A stretch of 64,000 nt of DNA, taken from the sequence record OZ346228.1. One strand, given 5' to 3'. Shown here in pieces: positions 3,134-37,141 of this stretch. The translations under genes were made by a program, and so were the position numbers. This DNA comes from a phage. Each line of letters starts with the position of its first letter. The first letter of the stretch is position 1. The notes under the pieces were generated by a model, which was not told the origin of the DNA, searched no databases, and saw only the letters and a program-made list of their open reading frames with translations.

Positions 3134-4174
3134 ATGTCAAAACCTAGTTTTCCATTAGAGATTTGGGCAGAGGAGGATCAGGTTCTGCCTAACACCCACA
3201 GACAGAACAGGCTACGCCCGATCGATGATTTGTGGAGAAAAGGTTGGGATCTTGGTCAAAAGCCATCCTGTGAAGAACTTAACTATATTTTCAATATGCT
3301 CGGAACTTGGGCAAAATACATTGCTGACGAGCAGATCCCCGCTCAAGAAGGCCGTTATCTGGTACGTGATAATAACTTGAGCGATCTTTTGAACATCCCT
3401 GTTGCCCGTAGAAACCTTGGGATTATCACTAAGGAAGAGGCAGACGCCAGGTATGTAAAAGTTACAGGTGATACAATGACAGGCCCCTTGGGGTTGCAAC
3501 GTATCAACTTTAAAGCTGCCGAGACAGATAAGGCTTGGATAGAGACAACTATTGGCCCAGATAAGACAACTCTCGACTTTGGGTTAAGTGATAATACCGG
3601 GTCGTTTGATGATGGTGGTACATCTACAGTGGATGCGTTTCGTTGGAGATTCCAGCCAACTCAGCCGGATATTAATCCAGAGTTCACTTTGATGTACCTT
3701 AACGCGATCACGGCTAATCGTGCGCTGTTGAAAGTGGTAGGCAATGTTGAAGTTGTCGATAACATGAGGTGCAATAACCTTACTATCAGCAATACAGCAA
3801 CATTCACCAACTGTAATGTGGCTAGTCAGTTGACGGCTGGGTCAGTATATGTTAATGGTGGTGCAAGTTGTGACAGTATGGTTGTAAGAAGCCAGCACTG
3901 TGTTGTCGGTAACAGAAATGTGGTGCGCTCCGTGAATGGAGTGACGGCTAACGGTAACGGTGATGTAACGATCACTATCCCGCAGACAGGTGTGCAAGAC
4001 ATCAGAATCGGTGCAAGACTTGTGGACGGCGTTTCTGAATCTCCAATCCGCAACGGCTACGTTGTCACAGGCTGGCATTTCGGTGACAAAAAAGAGATGC
4101 GTGGTTCAACCTACTGGGCAGGACCCTTACAAAAACTTGTAAATGGTCAATGGATCACTGTTAATTATGCATAG
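3134..4174 (+). CDS. tail fibre protein (paralog 1)
   Basis: 346 aa; GDTMTG-type fibre motif (VKVTGDTMTGPLGL); N- and C-termini conserved with ORF 5184-6230 (C-terminal QKLVNGQWITVNYA); followed by a Tfa-like chaperone. Confidence 0.7.
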   Translation: MSKPSFPLEIWAEEDQVLPNTHRQNRLRPIDDLWRKGWDLGQKPSCEELNYIFNMLGTWAKYIADEQIPAQEGRYLVRDNNLSDLLNIPVARRNLGIITKEEADARYVKVTGDTMTGPLGLQRINFKAAETDKAWIETTIGPDKTTLDFGLSDNTGSFDDGGTSTVDAFRWRFQPTQPDINPEFTLMYLNAITANRALLKVVGNVEVVDNMRCNNLTISNTATFTNCNVASQLTAGSVYVNGGASCDSMVVRSQHCVVGNRNVVRSVNGVTANGNGDVTITIPQTGVQDIRIGARLVDGVSESPIRNGYVVTGWHFGDKKEMRGSTYWAGPLQKLVNGQWITVNYA

Positions 4175-4188
4175 ATCGGAGGACTAGC

Positions 4189-4773
4189 ATGAAAATACTT
4201 CAAGAGTTTAAACTTTACCAACCAGGATCTGGCGAATACCACTCCAACAAGGAAACCAAGGAGCTGACCCCTCAAGAGGTAGAGGATTACACCGCATACA
4301 CTGGGTATTTTTTACGTAATGATGATGGTGATTGGTATGTGCAGTCACGAACATTACGACAAGAAAATCCAGGGTGTATCTTCCTACTTGTTGACGAGAA
4401 GGGAATTCTTAAGACATCTACAGAAGAACCTGATGCCTTATGGCCTGCTCCAGGTCTTCGTGTGGTTATCGCCAAAAAAGAAGAGGTACCAGAAAACATT
4501 ATGCTTCACCACGACGCTTTGCGTTTAGTTGGTGATGAATTTGTCACAGACAATGAATTCTTTGTTCAACAGGCAGAGGGTGTCATAGAGACAGAACTTG
4601 CTTGGGCTACTGCTAGAATTGGTGCCTATCAAGACATGATTGACCTTGAATATGATCTTACTGATGACCAGAAACGTAACATCAGAGATTTGAAAATGTA
4701 CAGGGTAAAACTTCTTGAAATAGATACATCTAAAGCCCCTGACATTTTCTTCCCAGAGCGACCTACCCTCTAA
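4189..4773 (+). CDS. tail fibre assembly protein (lambda Tfa / P2 G-like)
   Basis: 194 aa; C-terminal KMYRVKLLEIDTSKAPDIFFP matches the conserved Tfa C-terminus ([21 protein letters not shown] in lambda); GGAGG RBS. Confidence 0.75.
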   Translation: MKILQEFKLYQPGSGEYHSNKETKELTPQEVEDYTAYTGYFLRNDDGDWYVQSRTLRQENPGCIFLLVDEKGILKTSTEEPDALWPAPGLRVVIAKKEEVPENIMLHHDALRLVGDEFVTDNEFFVQQAEGVIETELAWATARIGAYQDMIDLEYDLTDDQKRNIRDLKMYRVKLLEIDTSKAPDIFFPERPTL

Positions 4774-31395: not shown

Positions 31396-33463
31396 ATTTA
31401 TGGCATCTGCATACAACCGTTTCGGTGAGCCAAACCCGAAAGCAACTAAGTATAAAAGTGGGGGGAGTGTGAAACGAGACTATCGTGATGAAAAAGAAGT
31501 TGAAACTGTAGAGACTGTTTTAGAAAATACTAAAATTGTCCCTGTCCCACAACAAAATATCGGTCTGATGGCTGCACAATATTTTGGTGTGCGATCAGCA
31601 TTGTCCCAAGAAGACGGTGTGACAGTCACTGCAACATATTTCCCATATTACGACCGCTACGGAAATCTGTCTGGTTTCAAAAAGCGTGACTGGACTATTC
31701 CTAAAGAGCAAAGGGGCCATTTCTCCGTTGTTGGCATCGTAAAGGCCAACTCCCAGATGTTTGGTCAAAAGCTGTGTGCATCTTCCAACAACCGTAAGCA
31801 GATTAATGTTTGTGAGGGAGAAGGTGATGTTATTGCAGCATGGCAGGCTGCATATCAAATACAAGTAAAAGGGATTCTCACCAACGCTAAAGCCCCGGCA
31901 AAGGTGAAACAGTGGGCTAAAGAGGTCCAGGACGGGATCGATGCAGTTATCAACGGGGGTGATTTGGCAGGAAAACCCTGCCTGCCTTTTGTTGGAATTA
32001 ACTGTGGATGTGCAAACGCAGTAGATACTTTTGCAAACAATGAGAAATTTATCCGTAGCTACGGAACAGTGGTCCTTGCAATGGACAACGATGCGGCTAA
32101 CGAGGTAGAGAAGCAAAAACACGTTATCAAAGGTGTTGAAGCCACACATAATATTGCAGCATTTTTGATGGCTGACAACGTTTACCACGTGGAATATCCT
32201 GGCGAGGTAAACGACCCTGATGGTGTAAAAGATATCCGTGACATGCTGAAGGCTAAAAAGCTGGAAGATATTGTAAACATGTTCCGGCATCCTGTTAAGT
32301 ATGTGCCTGATGCTGTGTCGGATTTAGAAGACTTCTCTATCGAATCTTTGCGGAAAAAGACTTCCAACGGGGTAGATATCAGCGCAGAGTTTCCAAAACT
32401 GCAAAAAATGCTAAAAGGCTTGCACAAAGGGACACTCGTAATGCTTACAGGTCCATCAGGAGGTGGTAAAACAACTGTAGCCAAAAAACTGGAACACTGT
32501 ATTGCAAGATACCTAATGGACCCGACATGTCCAAAGGCCGATGACTACGAAGAGGATGATCGTCTATGCATGATTCATCTTGAGGAGGACCCAGAGGAAG
32601 CAATTAACTCCTTGTATGCAAACCAGTTAGGGTTTGATGTTAAAGAGTTTGTTGAAGATCCTAGCCAGTTTTTAACTGATCAAGAACATGCAGAGATTCA
32701 CCAATCATGGGCAAAAGCTGGAAAAATCAAAGTGTTCAAACATTTCGGGTCTATTCCAGTGGACGAGTTGATTACCAAGCTTAAGCAAATGGTCTGCCTG
32801 TACCATTGTCGCTATATTGTGCTGGATCACCTGTCTATGGTAATTTCAGGGCTTAATGTTAAAGATGAGCGAAAAGAACTGGACATGGCTATGACTCAGC
32901 TGGCTGCGTTTTGTAAGCAGTTTAACGTGTTTATCTTGGTGATCGCTCACCTCAAACGTACAGAGATTGTGCCTCCTAAGGACAAGGATGGTAACCCATT
33001 ACCTTTCTGGTATCCTGTGCGAAAAGAGAATTTGCGAGGATCGGCTGGGCTTGAACAGTTGAGTTGGGTAGTCATAGGTGTCGAGGCCGAAGAAATGGTG
33101 GATCGTTCTCGTGGGCGTGTCCGTCTGGTAGGTCTTAAAAACCGTCCAGCAAAAACTTTAGGTATTGCTGACACTTTAGTTATGGACCCACATACAGGTA
33201 AGTTCCATGATGCCAGTAATTGGTACTGGGACAAAGAAATGCAGATGTTTACAGACGGAGAAGGTGGGGAGGTTGTTTGGAGACCTCAGGCCATGTTTGA
33301 GGACCAAGAGCATGCAGTTGTAGAAACACCTATGGGCAAGGTTGTAGCCGATAAGGTTGTAACTCCTACTATTAAGCCTGTTGACACGCAGGAAGACCTT
33401 CAGTACGATGATCCATCCTCTGATCCGGTCCCCGGTTTTGAGGATGATGAAACACCTTTTTAA
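31385..33463 (+). CDS. primase-helicase (T7 gp4-like; TOPRIM plus DnaB-type helicase)
   Basis: 692 aa; TOPRIM-like CEGEGDVIAAWQ, Walker A LTGPSGGGKTT, Walker B IVLDHL; AAGGAG RBS. Confidence 0.8.
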   Translation: MGSKFMASAYNRFGEPNPKATKYKSGGSVKRDYRDEKEVETVETVLENTKIVPVPQQNIGLMAAQYFGVRSALSQEDGVTVTATYFPYYDRYGNLSGFKKRDWTIPKEQRGHFSVVGIVKANSQMFGQKLCASSNNRKQINVCEGEGDVIAAWQAAYQIQVKGILTNAKAPAKVKQWAKEVQDGIDAVINGGDLAGKPCLPFVGINCGCANAVDTFANNEKFIRSYGTVVLAMDNDAANEVEKQKHVIKGVEATHNIAAFLMADNVYHVEYPGEVNDPDGVKDIRDMLKAKKLEDIVNMFRHPVKYVPDAVSDLEDFSIESLRKKTSNGVDISAEFPKLQKMLKGLHKGTLVMLTGPSGGGKTTVAKKLEHCIARYLMDPTCPKADDYEEDDRLCMIHLEEDPEEAINSLYANQLGFDVKEFVEDPSQFLTDQEHAEIHQSWAKAGKIKVFKHFGSIPVDELITKLKQMVCLYHCRYIVLDHLSMVISGLNVKDERKELDMAMTQLAAFCKQFNVFILVIAHLKRTEIVPPKDKDGNPLPFWYPVRKENLRGSAGLEQLSWVVIGVEAEEMVDRSRGRVRLVGLKNRPAKTLGIADTLVMDPHTGKFHDASNWYWDKEMQMFTDGEGGEVVWRPQAMFEDQEHAVVETPMGKVVADKVVTPTIKPVDTQEDLQYDDPSSDPVPGFEDDETPF

Positions 33464-33521: not shown

Positions 33522-35945
33522 ATGAGCATGTGGTCGTTCGACTTTGAGTCATCCGGTTTGCTGGAAGACCCAGATCTTTATTATCACTGCGGCCTGTTTA
33601 AAGAGCTGAATAAGAACCGTTTTATGCTGTTCCTTCCTCTAAATGACCGCACACACTACTCCGAGGAGGATATAGAAAAGGCTAAGAACTTCATTCTGGC
33701 AAAGAAAACTCTTTATAAAGATTTTGAAGTTCGCATAGCAGATTTTTCAGAGTTGGAAGGTTGGCTTACAGGAAATTCTGACTGGTCACCAACAGCTTTG
33801 AACTGCCATAACTGCTACAGTTATGACTTTATGCTGATGGAAAGATTATCTGGTATTCATTTTGATATGTTCCGTGATCCTAAGTGTATGGGGACTATCA
33901 ACGATCACCAGGTTAACCTGTTTGATACGTTGGCGATGAGCCGAATCTTGTGGCCTGATCGCCCTTTACCAAAAGGTTGTCCGGACTCTGTATTCAACCC
34001 GGTTACTAAGAAAATGCAGCCTGTTGGTCCTCACGGCCTTATGGCATGGGGCTACGCCCTTGGTAACCAGAAAGTTCAAATTGATGACTGGCGCGATCTT
34101 CCGTTATGGAAGTATGTGGATCGTGTATTTGAGGACGTTATCATCCAGGAGCTGCTCTGGAAAGAGCTGGTAGCGGAATCAAAAGGTGTATTCTACGGCA
34201 AATCTGACATGCAGAACTTTATGTACGATCCTGCCAAAGAGAAGCCGAAAGGGTTCAAGAAGATCACCTGGAAGAACGCATTACGTCGAGGCATGTTGCA
34301 GCACTTCCTGATGGAGCTGCAGGCCCGTCAGGGTGTATACTTCGACATAGATGGGGCTATTGCTTTACGTGACCGCTGCGATGCGTGGATGAAAGAGATC
34401 GCTGATCGTGTTGAACCACAACTGCCTTTAAAAGAGCTGTCAATGTCTCAGCGGCCCAAGTTCCCTGAAAAGCCGTTTAACCAAGATGGGACAATCTCTA
34501 ATAATGGTTGGAAATGGTTAAAAGATAAGCTTGGCTATCCTGTGGACATGAGTGCTTTAGAGTTCAAAGCCCCACCTAAGCGAGCATTTACCTCTACAGG
34601 AGATGTCAGTAAGATGGGGATAAAATGGTGTGAAGAGATGGGCTGCAAAGACCACGATAAGATGGCTGATTTCTTGAGAGGTTATATTAAGGGCACCTCC
34701 ACACCACAACCTTTACCTAAAGAGCTGATGGATCAGGCAATAAGCGATCTGCAACAGAAGCGAATGCCTGACTGCAAGATACCTATGAAAATCAGCAATC
34801 AGGACGACATTAAGCGATACCTGATCAGTGCTGGTTGGCTTCCGACAATGTGGAGAACTAAGGATGTAACTAAGGACAGCAAGAAGAAAGCTCTACCTGA
34901 TGCAGATGTTGATGCACGAGTATATGCATACATGGACGAGCTTTTAGAGTCAGAGTATTGTGACCTAATTATCAACTTCTGGAACAAAACTGATGCTAAG
35001 TTTCAGACAACAGTGCACAAGTTCCGAAGCTTTCCTAACTCCGAAAGGATTAAAAAGGAAGTGTTCGGGAAAATACGCAGAAAAGCCAGGGCACTTATTA
35101 CTTCTCCGCAACTGAAAGATACGTTTGGACACCTATGTCCGAATCTTGAAAAATTGAACGGAGAGATGGCTAAAGATATCGTCTTGTGGTTATCATTGCG
35201 AAACCGCAGATCGGTCCTTGATCCAATCAAGGAGGATAAGGTTGATACTGGTCTTCTTAATCACCCACGTTTGAAGATTGACCATAAGCTTCCTGCTAAA
35301 AGCTCTGGATTAACAAACACTTCCCGACAGAAACACAGTATTTGTGCAAACATGCCTAAACCATCTCCTAAAGTGGTTATGGGTAAAGAGATGCGTAGCT
35401 TGTGGGGTGTTCCTCCTGGATACTTTGAGATCGGTATTGACGGGTCCAACTTAGAGCAGCTTATCGGGGCTTGGGGTGCCTTTGAGTTCGACAACGGCTT
35501 GTACTATGATGTTGTAAGTAACGGGGACGCACACCAAAACAATGCTGAGGCATATACAAAAGTAGCAGGCAGAGAGGTGTCTCGTAACGACGGTAAACCT
35601 ATCACGTATGGGGTTATGTACGGGGCACAAAAAGATAAAGTTGCAGATATGCTGGATATCTCCCCAGAGTTGGGGCAAAGGGTGATCGATGCACTTTGGG
35701 ATGCCAACCCAGGTCTTAAGGGGCGCAAAGAGGATCTGGAGAAATTCTGGGAAGCAACAGGTAAGAAGTTTATCTACTCTTTTGATGGTCATGCTATCTG
35801 GACCCGATCTAAACACTCTTTACTTAATGCATACCAACAAAATGGCGGCGCATCGTTGTGTGACTTAGTTGGGATACTCATGCACCATCAAATGGTGAAG
35901 CGTGGGTGGTACGATGAAGGTGTTCGTCGTATTATCTATTACCAT
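33522..35945 (+). CDS. DNA polymerase family A, exon 1 (ORF continues to in-intron stop at 35951)
   Basis: 3'-5' exo motif FDFESSG, pol motif A IDGSNLEQL, motif B K..ITYGVMYG; ORF stops right after ...IIYYH-K, before motif C. Confidence 0.8.
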
Positions 35946-36787
35946 AAATAACATTGTGGCTTCGTGCAGTGATGCACGTCGAAAACCTCTTTAATTGACG
36001 GGAAGGCTAAGTTGACTTTTACACCTAAACATGGTAAAAGCTCAATATGCTAATCCGCAGCGAAGACTAAAGGGGTGTAGTTAAAATGGCTAGATCAGTT
36101 GAGTATCACGGATATACCGTGTTTGATGATGGAACAATACCTTTATCGAAACGTGATCATACAACAATGTTTTGTTTTGATAATGGTCGAGGTTACCTTT
36201 GCGTAACCATGTTCATCGAGGGGAAGCAGTGCACAAAAGGTGTCCACCACTTGGTTGCTGAATGCTTTGTATCAAACCCTGATCCTGAAAGGCTCACATG
36301 GGTGAACCATAAGGACGGAAACAAATACAACAATGCATACTGGAACCTTGAATGGACCACCCCTGGTGGAAATATCAAACACGCTTATGATAATGACCTC
36401 AGAGTAAGGCCAGTCGGTGAGTATAATGCCAACGCTGTACTGACCGAGGATGAGGTAACGGAGATTTGCGAACTGTTACAAAGTGGTTTACGACAATGCG
36501 AGATTAGGGATCTTGGGTATCCTTATGAGACGGTCAGAGCCATAAAGCAAAGAAGACAGTGGAAACATATCTCTAAAAACTACACCTGGTAGTAACGTTC
36601 AGAGACTATCGAAAGCATAGCGCCAACATAAATTGGTGCGAAGAAGCGAGTAGAGTAGACCAGCAAGTGCGGTCGAAATGGGAGGTGCCTTGGTAACAAG
36701 GTAGTGAGATAGTCCGATCCATACAGGAAACTGTATGGCTGTGCACGTAATGGTGCGGGGTAGCTTAACGACCTACCTGAACTATTG
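35946..36787 (+). ncRNA. group I self-splicing intron (842 nt) in DNA polymerase gene
   Basis: 5' exon ends in U, intron ends in G; IGS UUGUGG (about 35954-35959) complementary to CCAU|AA; P/Q/R/S-like elements aattgacgggaaggc (~35993), aatccgcagc (~36052), gttcagagacta (~36597), gagatagtcc (~36706); HNH ORF between Q and R. Confidence 0.8.
36086..36592 (+). CDS. HNH homing endonuclease (intron-encoded)
   Basis: 168 aa; HHLVAECF ... NHKDGNKYNNAYWNLEWTT HNH signature; out of frame with polymerase exons; lies within the intron. Confidence 0.8.
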   Translation: MARSVEYHGYTVFDDGTIPLSKRDHTTMFCFDNGRGYLCVTMFIEGKQCTKGVHHLVAECFVSNPDPERLTWVNHKDGNKYNNAYWNLEWTTPGGNIKHAYDNDLRVRPVGEYNANAVLTEDEVTEICELLQSGLRQCEIRDLGYPYETVRAIKQRRQWKHISKNYTW

Positions 36788-37141
36788 GATGAGTACCAAC
36801 TTCAAGTCCCTGACACACCGAAGTATAAGACTGTGTACACCTTCGACACAATCGAAGAACTGGAAGCATTTAAGGCAGAGCAGGAGGCCAAACTTCATGT
36901 GTTCGACGGTCATAAGTACAAAAAGGCACGCAAGGATGAGGACGGAAACGAAGTGGTTGACAGAGACGGAAACACGGTGTACGATCCTATCCTGAACGAT
37001 GACGGAAAGCTTGAACTTATCTGGAGCCCTGTGGGTGAAATGGTGGTGCATTGCTTCTGGCAAGCTTCTAAAATGATGGGCGTCCCGTTCCAGATCACGG
37101 GTGAATACCTGTGTGGTCGTAATTGGGGTGATTGTCACTAA
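36788..37141 (+). CDS. DNA polymerase family A, exon 2
   Basis: Reading frame open from 36764; DEYQLQV supplies the DE of motif C (YYH|DE) when joined to exon 1; ends GRNWGDCH like PolA C-termini (T7 ...GPNWAICH). Confidence 0.7.
   Translation, partial: DEYQLQVPDTPKYKTVYTFDTIEELEAFKAEQEAKLHVFDGHKYKKARKDEDGNEVVDRDGNTVYDPILNDDGKLELIWSPVGEMVVHCFWQASKMMGVPFQITGEYLCGRNWGDCH

Follow-up and report, generated by a model that had tools for sequence, protein, structure and literature searches.

Organisation of the interrupted polymerase gene

The window analysed here, a stretch of 64 kb (64,000 nucleotides), comes from an rV5-like Escherichia coli phage of the genus Vequintavirus that is 98% identical to the BASEL phage Bas58. 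It holds a gene for a family-A DNA polymerase which is divided into two coding segments, here called exons, by an intervening sequence with a gene for an HNH endonuclease inside it (Table 1). The open reading frame of the unspliced first exon (33522..35951) is listed with 809 aa and the C-terminus ..RRIIYYHK, while the coding part of exon 2 (36788-37138, DEYQLQV...GRNWGDCH) begins 836 nt past the stop of exon 1 and, as 842 leaves a remainder of 2 on division by 3, is read in another frame. The listed TTG start at 36785 is an ORF-calling artefact.

Table 1. Coordinates of the polymerase exons, the intron and the intron elements in the window
Feature	Position	Strand	Remarks
Exon 1, family-A DNA polymerase	33522..35945	+	808 codons; exonuclease region, motifs A and B; ends at the motif C His codon
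P1 hairpin	35942..35959	+	exon CCAU (35942-35945) and intron AA with guide sequence UUGUGG (35954-35959); Rfam alignment
Group I intron	35946..36787	+	842 nt, IA2-like; starts after the P1 U.G wobble; last base is the terminal G (omega G)
In-frame UAA stop	35949..35951	+	intron nt 4-6
P2 hairpin CGUGCA / UGCACG	35963..35978	+	6/6 pairs with compensatory double changes
P3 5' strand CCUCUU	35986..35991	+	partner GGGAGG 36680-36685; 3/6 pairs compensatory; 100% paired
P4-P5 domain	35993..36061	+	P element 35993-36006, extended P5 hairpin, Q element 36052-36061; Rfam alignment
P6a stem GGUGUAG 36074-36080 / CUACACC 36580-36586	36074..36586	+	encloses the endonuclease ORF; read from the sequence
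HNH homing endonuclease ORF, I-HmuI type	36086..36592	+	168 aa; P6a loop, between Q and R; C-terminal DNA-binding-like region
R element and P7 5' strand GUUCAGAGACUA	36597..36608	+	pairs with S element 36706-36715; Rfam alignment
P7.1 GCGCCAA / UUGGUGC, GUA linker 36655-36657, P7.2	36620..36674	+	
P3 3' strand 36680-36685, P8 hairpin 36686-36703, S element and P7 3' strand 36706-36715	36680..36715	+	
P9 36719-36738, P9.1 36742-36757, P9.2 36759-36777, 3' tail to terminal G	36719..36787	+	
Exon 2	36788..37141	+	117 codons and stop (37139-37141); starts with motif C Asp-Glu

Joining the exons at 35945/36788 gives an uninterrupted protein of 925 aa which reads ..IYYH/DEYQ.. at the junction, with exon 1 ending in ..UAUUACCAU and exon 2 starting with GAUGAGUACC.. 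in the predicted ligation product. Residues 633-813 of the spliced protein align with residues 468-658 of T7 gp5, the T7 DNA polymerase (E 7e-16), and the alignment runs in order through GIDGS (motif A), KPITYGVMYGA (motif B) and YYHDE (motif C), placing HDE on the HDE of T7. The spliced protein therefore has motifs A, B and C of family-A polymerases in sequence, with the catalytic Asp and Glu, whereas, going by the ORF listing, the product of unspliced RNA would be a polymerase of 809 aa in which the motif C Asp and Glu are missing. At the level of profiles, exon 1 matches the phrog_17 DNA polymerase (E 1.3e-90) and covers positions 1-185 of the polymerase profile phrog_8888, which exon 2 continues over positions 186-295; exon 1 alone reaches 27.9 bits against Pfam DNA_pol_A, under the cut-off of 34.3.

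The insertion separates the His codon from the Asp codon of polymerase motif C (HDE). Its boundaries are exact, because intron-less alleles match the predicted ligated exons: the junction is ..TATTACCAT/GATGAGTAC.. in near-identical phages that lack the insert, and the intron-less phage JeffSchatz reads ..TATTACCAT/GATGAGTACC.., the same as the predicted ligation. Murica and Bas55 are likewise intron-less. In several further phages the junction is spanned by one uninterrupted tblastn piece with 99.5-100% protein identity. Public protein sets contain, under the label 'DNA polymerase', the spliced protein of 925 aa in its exact sequence as well as a variant that differs in one residue, so that both the intron-less alleles and a known protein attest that precise excision restores the reading frame of the host gene. 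A first-pass annotation made from the sequence alone had placed the exon 1 stop, the 836-nt gap and the out-of-frame second exon at these same positions and had proposed the junction after 35945 that the intron-less alleles and the public protein now bear out. It had also predicted that joining the exons would rebuild motif C and that the product would align with family-A polymerases through this motif, as the T7 alignment and the continuity of phrog_8888 over both exons confirm.

Structure and conservation of the ribozyme

The intervening sequence gives a full-length match to the group I intron family RF00028 of Rfam (model positions 1-253) with 39.1 bits and a local E of 3e-8, corresponding to an E of 1.8e-6 when both strands of the complete 64-kb window are searched with 4227 families; the match includes the core elements P, Q, R and S. 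It is the sole match at E <= 0.01 in the 64-kb window, in which no other group I introns, no tRNAs and no other RNA families were found at this threshold. The covariance search suggested in the first-pass annotation thus yielded a significant full-length match, but one below the gathering score. At the gathering threshold, the default scan with Rfam returned no matches, because 39.1 bits is less than the gathering score of 50 for RF00028. ORF-less introns at the same site in other phages do pass it, with 72.5 bits in JLBYU08, 64.7 in rV5, 91.2 in TH18 and 65.0 in Vibrio phage 424E50-1. What lowers the score of the window copy is most likely the 510-nt insertion of the ORF, together with additional sequence in P5 and P7.1.

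Covariation was assessed in an alignment of 10 introns inserted at this site, taken from four genera of the Vequintavirinae and from Vibrio phages and trimmed of their ORFs. RNAalifold recovered P1-P5, P7.2, P8, P9, P9.1 and P9.2, with compensatory changes in 30 of 66 pairs. In a hand-drawn structure that includes the P7 pseudoknot, 99.7% of cells are paired, as against 34-41% when the partners are slid along each other, and double changes occur in 28 of 59 pairs, a value reached by none of 500 shuffles. P5, P6a and P7.1 stand outside this formal pair count, being too divergent and length-variable for MAFFT; as proposed helices they rest on complementarity within single sequences.

The core helices P3-P9 and the P3/P7 pseudoknot are backed by covariation, to which the individual helices contribute unequally. 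Compensatory changes are seen in 4/6 pairs of P8, 5/8 of P9, 1/5 of P9.1 and 4/5 of P9.2, in one pair of P4 and in two pairs each of P7.2 (GACC 36658-36661 / GGUC 36671-36674) and the P7 pseudoknot, which is 100% paired; the pairs of P5 were recovered with RNAalifold. P1 is a case of its own, since none of its 6 pairs varies among the 10 sequences, in which pairing is 100%, and covariation hence lends it no support. The wobble between U35945 and G at the 5' splice site and the terminal G, which is G36787 in the window, are likewise invariant in the 10 same-site introns. P6a can be followed by eye in Av-05, where GGUAUAG / CUAUAC keeps the stem with a change from G-C to A-U, and P7.1 is seen as complementarity in the window sequence alone. 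For P10, at best 3 bp can be drawn by eye between C7-A8-U9 of the intron and A2-U3-G4 of exon 2, as a possible pairing.

The hallmark of subgroup IA2 is the presence of P7.1 and P7.2 between the 5' strand of P7 and the 3' strand of P3, joined by G-U-A (PMC3428280). The window intron has a GUA immediately 5' of P7.2, which is invariant in the 10 sequences, and the arrangement P7.1-GUA-P7.2, as read from the sequence, indicates a probable assignment to IA2. The subgroup offered in the first-pass annotation, likely IA, fits this arrangement. Its identification of a group I intron is carried by the full-length RF00028 match, by the ORF-less copies above the gathering score and by the strong covariation; the guide-like UUGUGG that it paired with CCAU/AA and the P/Q/R/S-like elements that it picked out are all present in the Rfam alignment.

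The HNH endonuclease

The closest solved structure to the product of the intron ORF is I-HmuI (PDB 1U3E, E 4.4e-6), with the HNH motif aligned. The ORF aligns with I-HmuI residues 15-100 and has the conserved His and Asn positions of the catalytic motif (His75, Asn87 and Asn96 are matched), with Asn in place of Asp74; the putative active-site His stands in VNHKDG. It also matches the phrog_59 HNH endonuclease profile (E 6.5e-38), while Pfam HNH_3 gives 17.7 bits (E 0.0027), under the cut-off of 24.8. These matches, together with the location in P6a, uphold the earlier reading of a 168-aa HNH ORF between Q and R. In GEC_vB_MG and PBES02, full-length homologues with about 55% identity are found at the corresponding place in the intron. 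A Shine-Dalgarno-like AGGGGUG at 36071-36077 overlaps the 5' strand of P6a, and translation of the ORF is probably limited by intron folding, because its ribosome-binding site is within the P6a stem. The endonuclease activity and its target, like this translational control, are what we infer for the 168-aa ORF.

Distribution among related phages

The spread of the intron was surveyed in 60 evenly spaced records out of 117 for Vequintavirus, the exons of which are at least 89% identical. About 29 of the 60 have no intron, about 16 have an intron of 276 nt, about two have one of about 329 nt, and about 13 have the 842-nt form with the HNH gene. Such patchy presence among near-identical phages may be read as a signature of mobility. 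The HNH gene is not established as the mover of the intron, because the ORF-less forms are as patchy as the HNH form. Exon co-conversion was looked for at six loci, where the few flanking SNPs (for example ATTATC versus ATTATT upstream) showed no correlation with the intron state.

In rV5, JLBYU08, TH18 and Vibrio phages the intron at this site has no ORF, and at least four states of cargo can be distinguished at this position: no ORF, an I-HmuI-like HNH gene in P6a, the HNH gene of CB7 in P5-P6a, and a LAGLIDADG gene in P7.1 of SEW_6S. The polymerase intron of Pectobacterium phage CB7 (Certrevirus) has the identical insertion point (..TATTACCAT/AAGTAACATTGTGG ... CTTTTG/GATGAATACCAG) and a ribozyme core homologous to that of the window, and splicing of the CB7 polymerase introns in vivo was demonstrated by RT-PCR and cDNA sequencing (PMC7344957). 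Its HNH protein, CB7_50, is of a different lineage from that of the window, the two having only the HNH motif in common (38% identity over 53 aa). The position of the gene differs as well: the CB7 ORF begins in the loop of P5, runs across the Q element and terminates in P6a, whereas the window ORF is located in P6a.

Site 881 of E. coli Pol I is the motif C His, the same His/Asp boundary as that of the window intron. According to PMC3428280, the introns of the T7-like coliphages ΦI and W31 (GenBank AY769989 and AY769990) are reported at this site 881, belong to IA2 with P7.1 and P7.2, have the HNH ORF I-TslI in P6a, and are called 'self-splicing' by the title under which they were first reported (Bonocora & Shub 2004). 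The likeness to the window is one of site and described architecture only, and the hosts of these introns are podoviruses unrelated to rV5. Introns of the same class, IA2 with an HNH nickase in family-A polymerase genes, occur in phages of Gram-positive hosts, from which the nearest solved structure, I-HmuI, comes; these are inserted elsewhere in the gene, within the fingers at Pol I site 674 (PMC3428280). Two phages of about 43 kb with core matches (ECO104 4-5-2 and 'Campylobacter phage A126', Ounavirinae) were tried as a link to ΦI and W31, but their introns sit elsewhere, at ..SASNP/N.. (equal to Pol I site 674) and at a site close to motif B, and are uninformative on 881.

All of these introns at the His/Asp boundary could belong to one ribozyme lineage with at least four cargo states, found in no fewer than four genera of the Vequintavirinae, in Vibrio myoviruses and perhaps in ΦI and W31; we consider the chances of this to be evenly balanced.

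Splicing and its alternatives

The segment 35946-36787 is almost certainly a mobile, HNH-bearing group I intron of IA2 type in motif C that is excised to give an intact polymerase. Group I introns splice by a standard pathway, in terms of which the locus can be understood as follows. The whole locus would be transcribed into a single pre-mRNA, in which the intron would fold as the P1-P9.2 core. An exogenous guanosine held in P7 would attack after U35945, at the P1 U.G wobble, and the free 3'-OH of exon 1 would then attack after the terminal G36787, ligating the exons into an mRNA for the 925-aa polymerase. On unspliced RNA, translation would end two codons into the intron. By analogy with its characterised relatives, we infer that splicing of the window intron is guanosine-dependent and autonomous. 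Where a co-infecting phage has an intron-less allele, the HNH enzyme presumably nicks or cuts it close to the site of insertion, after which recombinational repair would copy the intron into the cut allele (homing).

The gene could instead be truly split by a free-standing HNH gene, with polypeptides of 809 and about 117 aa made separately and assembling afterwards; nrdA of Aeromonas phage Aeh1 is reportedly split by mobE in this way into separate polypeptides. The stop two codons past the junction would suit such an arrangement, and the TTG at 36785, 3 nt before exon 2, could in principle start translation, although no Shine-Dalgarno-like sequence was seen before it on reading the sequence and exon 2, out of frame as it is, starts exactly at the Asp of HDE. 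That many GenBank records hold two separate polymerase CDSs also speaks for a split gene, but the intervening sequence is a complete and covarying group I ribozyme, and in rV5, JLBYU08, TH18 and Vibrio phages it persists with no endonuclease gene at all, which a split by a free-standing endonuclease gene leaves unexplained. CB7 offers evidence in both directions, since an HNH-associated intervening sequence in its nicotinamide phosphoribosyl transferase gene did not splice, whereas its intron at the very site of the window intron does (PMC7344957). A split gene is therefore regarded as very improbable.

It is also unlikely, if not to the point of neglect, that the intron is intact but not autonomous, needing a protein cofactor or splicing inefficiently and so acting in part as a brake on polymerase expression. 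Folding could be slowed by the long ORF insertion in P6a and by a P10 that has 3 bp at the most, the covariance score lies under the gathering score, and the splicing of the window copy itself is argued by analogy. Against this stand the clear purifying selection on the core helices of an intron in a presumably essential polymerase gene, the maintenance of same-site HNH-bearing introns of similar size in at least four genera, and the ΦI and W31 introns, IA2 introns with an HNH gene in P6a that are reported from this site and are called self-splicing by the title of their first description (PMC3428280). That the insert is an element of another kind, an intein or a group II intron for instance, has a negligible probability: the same polymerase gene does contain an intein in the relative VB-EcoM-WM, but the insert in the window has a length of 842 nt, which is no multiple of 3, and stops in the polymerase frame, and it is matched by the group I model and by no group II model. 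Reading frame and covariance models thus refute both the intein and the group II reading.

Implications for annotation and intron evolution

The mobile group I intron described here is already known, as it is annotated in near-identical phages and its relatives have been characterised experimentally. Between the window and Bas58 HeinrichReichert (MZ501073), the polymerase locus is 98.2% identical across 3620 nt and the spliced polymerases differ in one residue; the Bas58 record has a two-piece joined polymerase CDS with a 'putative homing endonuclease' inside. AlexBoehm and EmilHeitz are further BASEL Vequintaviruses with an annotated intron, and nothing substantive separates the window from these examples. 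The intron boundaries in the BASEL Vequintaviruses were set through comparative genomics, in a paper which is without a description of the ribozyme structure or a test of splicing (PMC8594841).

In many GenBank records, the polymerase is entered as two separate CDSs. The RefSeq entry of rV5 and many public rV5-like genomes give it as at least two CDSs, with spurious small ORFs within the ribozyme, and the original rV5 paper reported a truncated polymerase of 775 aa. The ORF insertion most likely drops phage introns of this kind below the gathering threshold, so that they are missed in default Rfam scans. The main value of the finding is thus one of annotation, as recognition of the intron leads to the correct 925-aa enzyme with its catalytic motif intact.

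We found no published write-up of the comparative picture of the motif C intron series. Bonocora and Shub proposed in 2009 that endonuclease genes invade pre-existing introns. If the single-lineage reading is true, the motif C introns would form a compact natural series for repeated and independent invasion of a pre-existing intron by homing endonuclease genes, which would illustrate the accepted model rather than a new mechanism. For phage biology, the locus is a further case in which a mobile intron targets an essential phage gene where its codons are most conserved.

The polymerase gene and its splice junction

The ORF map matched the layout that the first-pass annotation had described for a polymerase gene split within motif C (see table). 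Joining U35945 to G36788 takes out 842 nt (842 mod 3 = 2) and yields a conceptual product of 925 continuous amino acids with the junction ..IYYH/DEYQ.. (a slash marks the insertion point throughout). The insert is unambiguously 35946-36787, because its first and last bases differ from the neighbouring exon bases. The junction predicted at 35945/36788 equals the sequence of intron-less relatives and keeps the 925-aa frame open; in JeffSchatz this sequence reads ..CGTATTATTTATTACCAT/GATGAGTACCAACTTC.. In a tblastn search, 214 junction-spanning residues gave a single unbroken match in several Vequintaviruses, with 100% identity in JeffSchatz and nomo and 99.5% in Murica and CarlMeissner. Public protein collections contain the exact spliced protein plus a one-residue variant, which is called 'DNA polymerase' in DrSchubert and nomine and occurs on 33 contigs.

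The spliced protein also aligns through motif C with family-A polymerases: residues 633-813 match T7 DNA polymerase 468-658 (phmmer against the PDB, E 7e-16), pairing GIDGS with GIDAS in motif A, KPITYGVMYGA with KTFIYGFLYGA in motif B and iyyHDEyql with awvHDEiqv in motif C. The match to the PHROG polymerase profile phrog_8888 (295 positions), in which 1-185 correspond to the end of exon 1 and 186-295 to exon 2, continues exactly across the splice junction.

Features of the window and of other phage polymerase loci (L numbers; coordinates local to each locus)
Feature	Position	Length	Content or source
Primase/helicase ORF	end at 33463	692 aa	ORF map
Polymerase exon-1 ORF, C-terminus ..RRIIYYHK-stop	33522..35951	809 aa	ORF map
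Intron ORF	36086..36592	168 aa	ORF map
Frame-shifted exon-2 ORF, DEYQLQV...GRNWGDCH	36788..37141		ORF map
Same-site intron, JLBYU08		329 nt	no ORF
Same-site intron, rV5 (NC_011041)	L005 892-1167	276 nt	no ORF
Same-site intron, TH18		317 nt	no ORF
Same-site intron, Av-05 (Avunavirus)		843 nt	HNH ORF
Same-site intron, GEC_vB_MG (Seunavirus)		771 nt	HNH ORF
Same-site intron, PBES02 (Certrevirus)		772 nt	HNH ORF
Same-site intron, CB7 (Certrevirus)	L009 minus strand, 22480-21794	687 nt	HNH ORF, 127 aa
Same-site intron, Salmonella phage SEW_6S (PQ002171)	L011 1501-2419	919 nt	LAGLIDADG ORF
Same-site intron, Vibrio phage qdvp001		253 nt	no ORF
Same-site intron, Vibrio phage 424E50-1		254 nt	no ORF
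Second intron, 424E50-1 (OX241437)	L013 1144-1393		RF00028 93.3 bits
Intron, ECO104 4-5-2 (OR844702)	L014 ~950-1680
Intron, 'Campylobacter phage A126' (Ounavirinae)	L015 ~1590-1810
In-frame exon-1 insertion, Escherichia phage VB-EcoM-WM (PQ014731)	L003 ~3514-4482	969 bp	323-aa segment
rv5_gp222 'hypothetical protein'	L005 922-1080
rv5_gp221 'hypothetical protein'	L005 1115-1375

The ribozyme

No Rfam family matched the window at its gathering threshold. In E-value mode the proposed intron was matched by RF00028 (group I intron) at 35936-36737 over model positions 1-253, with 39.1 bits against a gathering score of 50 (E 3e-8 locally, 1.8e-6 for the whole window); this was the sole Rfam match at E <= 0.01 in the 64-kb window, where no further family was found. 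The alignment contains the guide pairing P1 with its U.G wobble and all four canonical core elements, P (AAUUGaCGGGAAGG), Q (AAUCCGCAGC), R (GUUCAGAGACUA) and S (GAGAUAGUCC). Two insertions are seen as well, one of 510 nt in the P6 loop and one of ~70 nt separating the P7 5' strand from the P3 3' strand. The low score most likely reflects the penalty for these insertions, because ORF-less introns at the same site exceed 50 bits (JLBYU08, with a core ~94% identical to the window's, 72.5; rV5 64.7; TH18 91.2; Vibrio phage 424E50-1 65.0).

Homologous introns occupy the identical His/Asp codon boundary in ten phages. An alignment of ten same-site introns with the ORF loops cut out (380 columns; CB7 excluded because of its long P5 insertion) was given to RNAalifold with no prior structure, which found P1, P2, P3, P4, P5, P7.2, P8, P9, P9.1 and P9.2, with 30 of 66 pairs changed on both sides. 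In a hand-drawn structure that includes the P3/P7 pseudoknot, 99.7% of cells are paired, compared with 34-41% in a control in which the 3' partners were shifted by 1-3 columns, and double changes occur in 28 of 59 pairs (88 cells). None of 500 shuffles equalled the observed pairing, double changes or covariation score. The invariant P1 and the 2-bp P6 are the only helices that lack a compensatory pair. GUA is invariant directly before P7.2, and the P7.1-GUA-P7.2 arrangement, with P7.1 drawn in the window copy only, fits the signature of subgroup IA2 (PMC3428280), in line with the likely IA-type assignment made earlier.

The same-site ribozyme carries endonucleases that differ in kind and position between phages. 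In SEW_6S the LAGLIDADG ORF occupies the P7.1 position, flanked by the P7 5' strand and P7.2. The unrelated HNH of CB7 has its start codon just 5' of the Q element and its stop codon within the P6a 3' strand. The cores of window and JLBYU08, and those of Av-05 and TH18, are otherwise similar within each pair; both pairs differ by P6a, which is either a short CAUCC-loop-GGAUG hairpin or an ORF-bearing module.

A truly split polymerase gene, with the HNH gene as a free-standing homing endonuclease gene, does not fit these data, as what separates the two exons is a ribozyme, conserved and covarying, which persists without any ORF. The frame and the stop codons rule out an intein at this position, and the model matches rule out a group II intron. 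The split of the polymerase gene seen at first is confirmed, and its reading as a group I intron with an HNH ORF in motif C is supported in all the details originally proposed; this ORF-bearing copy would probably splice autonomously and efficiently.

The intron-encoded endonuclease

The best solved relative of the 168-aa ORF product is I-HmuI (1U3E; E 4.4e-6), the HNH nicking enzyme encoded by the SPO1 polymerase intron, of which His75, Asn87 and Asn96 are matched. The product also matches phrog_59 'HNH endonuclease' (E 6.5e-38), and Pfam HNH_3 below cut-off. GEC_vB_MG has a full-length homologue at the same position (55% identity); the CB7 HNH has only the catalytic motif in common with the window protein. 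The loop of P6a contains the ORF: GGUGUAG (36074-36080) pairs with CUACACC (36580-36586), the latter within the final ORF codons. A Shine-Dalgarno-like AGGGGUG overlaps the P6a 5' strand, so that folding of the intron could hold back endonuclease translation, as proposed for the introns of ΦI/W31 and Pf-WMP3 (PMC3428280).

Among 117 phage records matching the ligated exons, an evenly spaced sample of 60 (exon identity to the window of 89% or more) comprised ~29 without an intron, ~16 with the 276-nt intron, ~2 with a ~329-nt intron and ~13 with the HNH intron of 842 nt. Such patchiness among near-identical phages would be expected if a mobile intron had been gained and lost repeatedly; it speaks for mobility, not specifically for the window HNH as the agent.

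Introns and a probable intein in related genes

The CB7 intron between CB7_51 and CB7_49 has the identical boundary and a homologous core. Motif C of E. coli Pol I is H881-D882-E883, and the Pro/Asn description of 'site 674' fits P674/N675 of that enzyme. 'Site X' therefore means after residue X, which makes site 881 the same H/D boundary as in the window. PMC3428280 puts its authors' own intron at site 674, between Pro and Asn. For the T7-like phages ΦI and W31 it reports IA2 introns that have an HNH ORF in P6a and lie at site 881; their boundary is likened to the window's from this published site number. These introns are termed self-splicing in the original report's title, as cited in PMC3428280. 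Both HNH-bearing introns of the CB7 polymerase gene splice, as seen by RT-PCR and cDNA sequencing (Buttimer et al., PMC7344957).

Other insertions occur in family-A polymerase genes. The second group I intron of 424E50-1 precedes the one in motif C by ~100 codons (..FNYLD/QGTEAAC..), at a site without an intron in the related qdvp001. The group I introns of ECO104 4-5-2 and A126 have related P9.x or P4-P7 core segments. One, with an HNH ORF, lies at ..SASNP/NMQQLP.., equivalent to Pol I site 674, the position also used in SPO1, Bastille and Pf-WMP3; the other, in a Felix O1-like phage, is at a site close to motif B. A Q-P6-R segment that is 84.6% identical also occurs in the terminase intron of the rV5 group. 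With no other Rfam match at E <= 0.01 in the window, rV5-type terminase introns lie outside it or are absent from this phage; ARAGORN found no tRNA genes in 1-64000.

The VB-EcoM-WM insertion, also present in Mangalyan (OR449013) as judged by size, corresponds to a point after codon 671 of the window gene (..NGDAH/QNN.., ~35534/35535). It begins with Cys and ends in ..VCGN, and the +1 residue after it is Cys, against Gln in the window. It looks like an intein, so that the polymerase gene would host both an intein and a group I intron; the window polymerase is without it.

Existing annotation

Megablast of the 3.6-kb locus hit 121 phage records, almost all of them from Escherichia Vequintaviruses, which are rV5-like myoviruses. 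The closest, BASEL phage Bas58 HeinrichReichert (98.2% identity), has its polymerase annotated as a two-piece joined CDS around a 'putative homing endonuclease', and intron boundaries in BASEL phages were placed by comparative genomics (PMC8594841). The original rV5 paper reports introns in the terminase gene only and a polymerase of 775 aa (PMC3606486); the polymerase intron was therefore missed there. RefSeq lists the rV5 polymerase as two separate CDSs; rv5_gp222, entirely within the 276-nt ribozyme, and rv5_gp221, which straddles the intron/exon 2 border, are very probably spurious ORFs.

Sixteen MG0656xx records (e.g. MG065690, MG065644, MG065654) are titled 'Campylobacter phage' with host C. 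jejuni. At the polymerase locus they are mostly 96-97% identical to E. coli Vequintaviruses (three 87%), with the same intron polymorphism, and at least one record of the series (A126) carries an UNVERIFIED flag; the host labels look doubtful.

The window element belongs to a well-characterised class and is itself known and annotated already; its practical worth lies in fixing the many public records that still divide the polymerase into separate CDSs.
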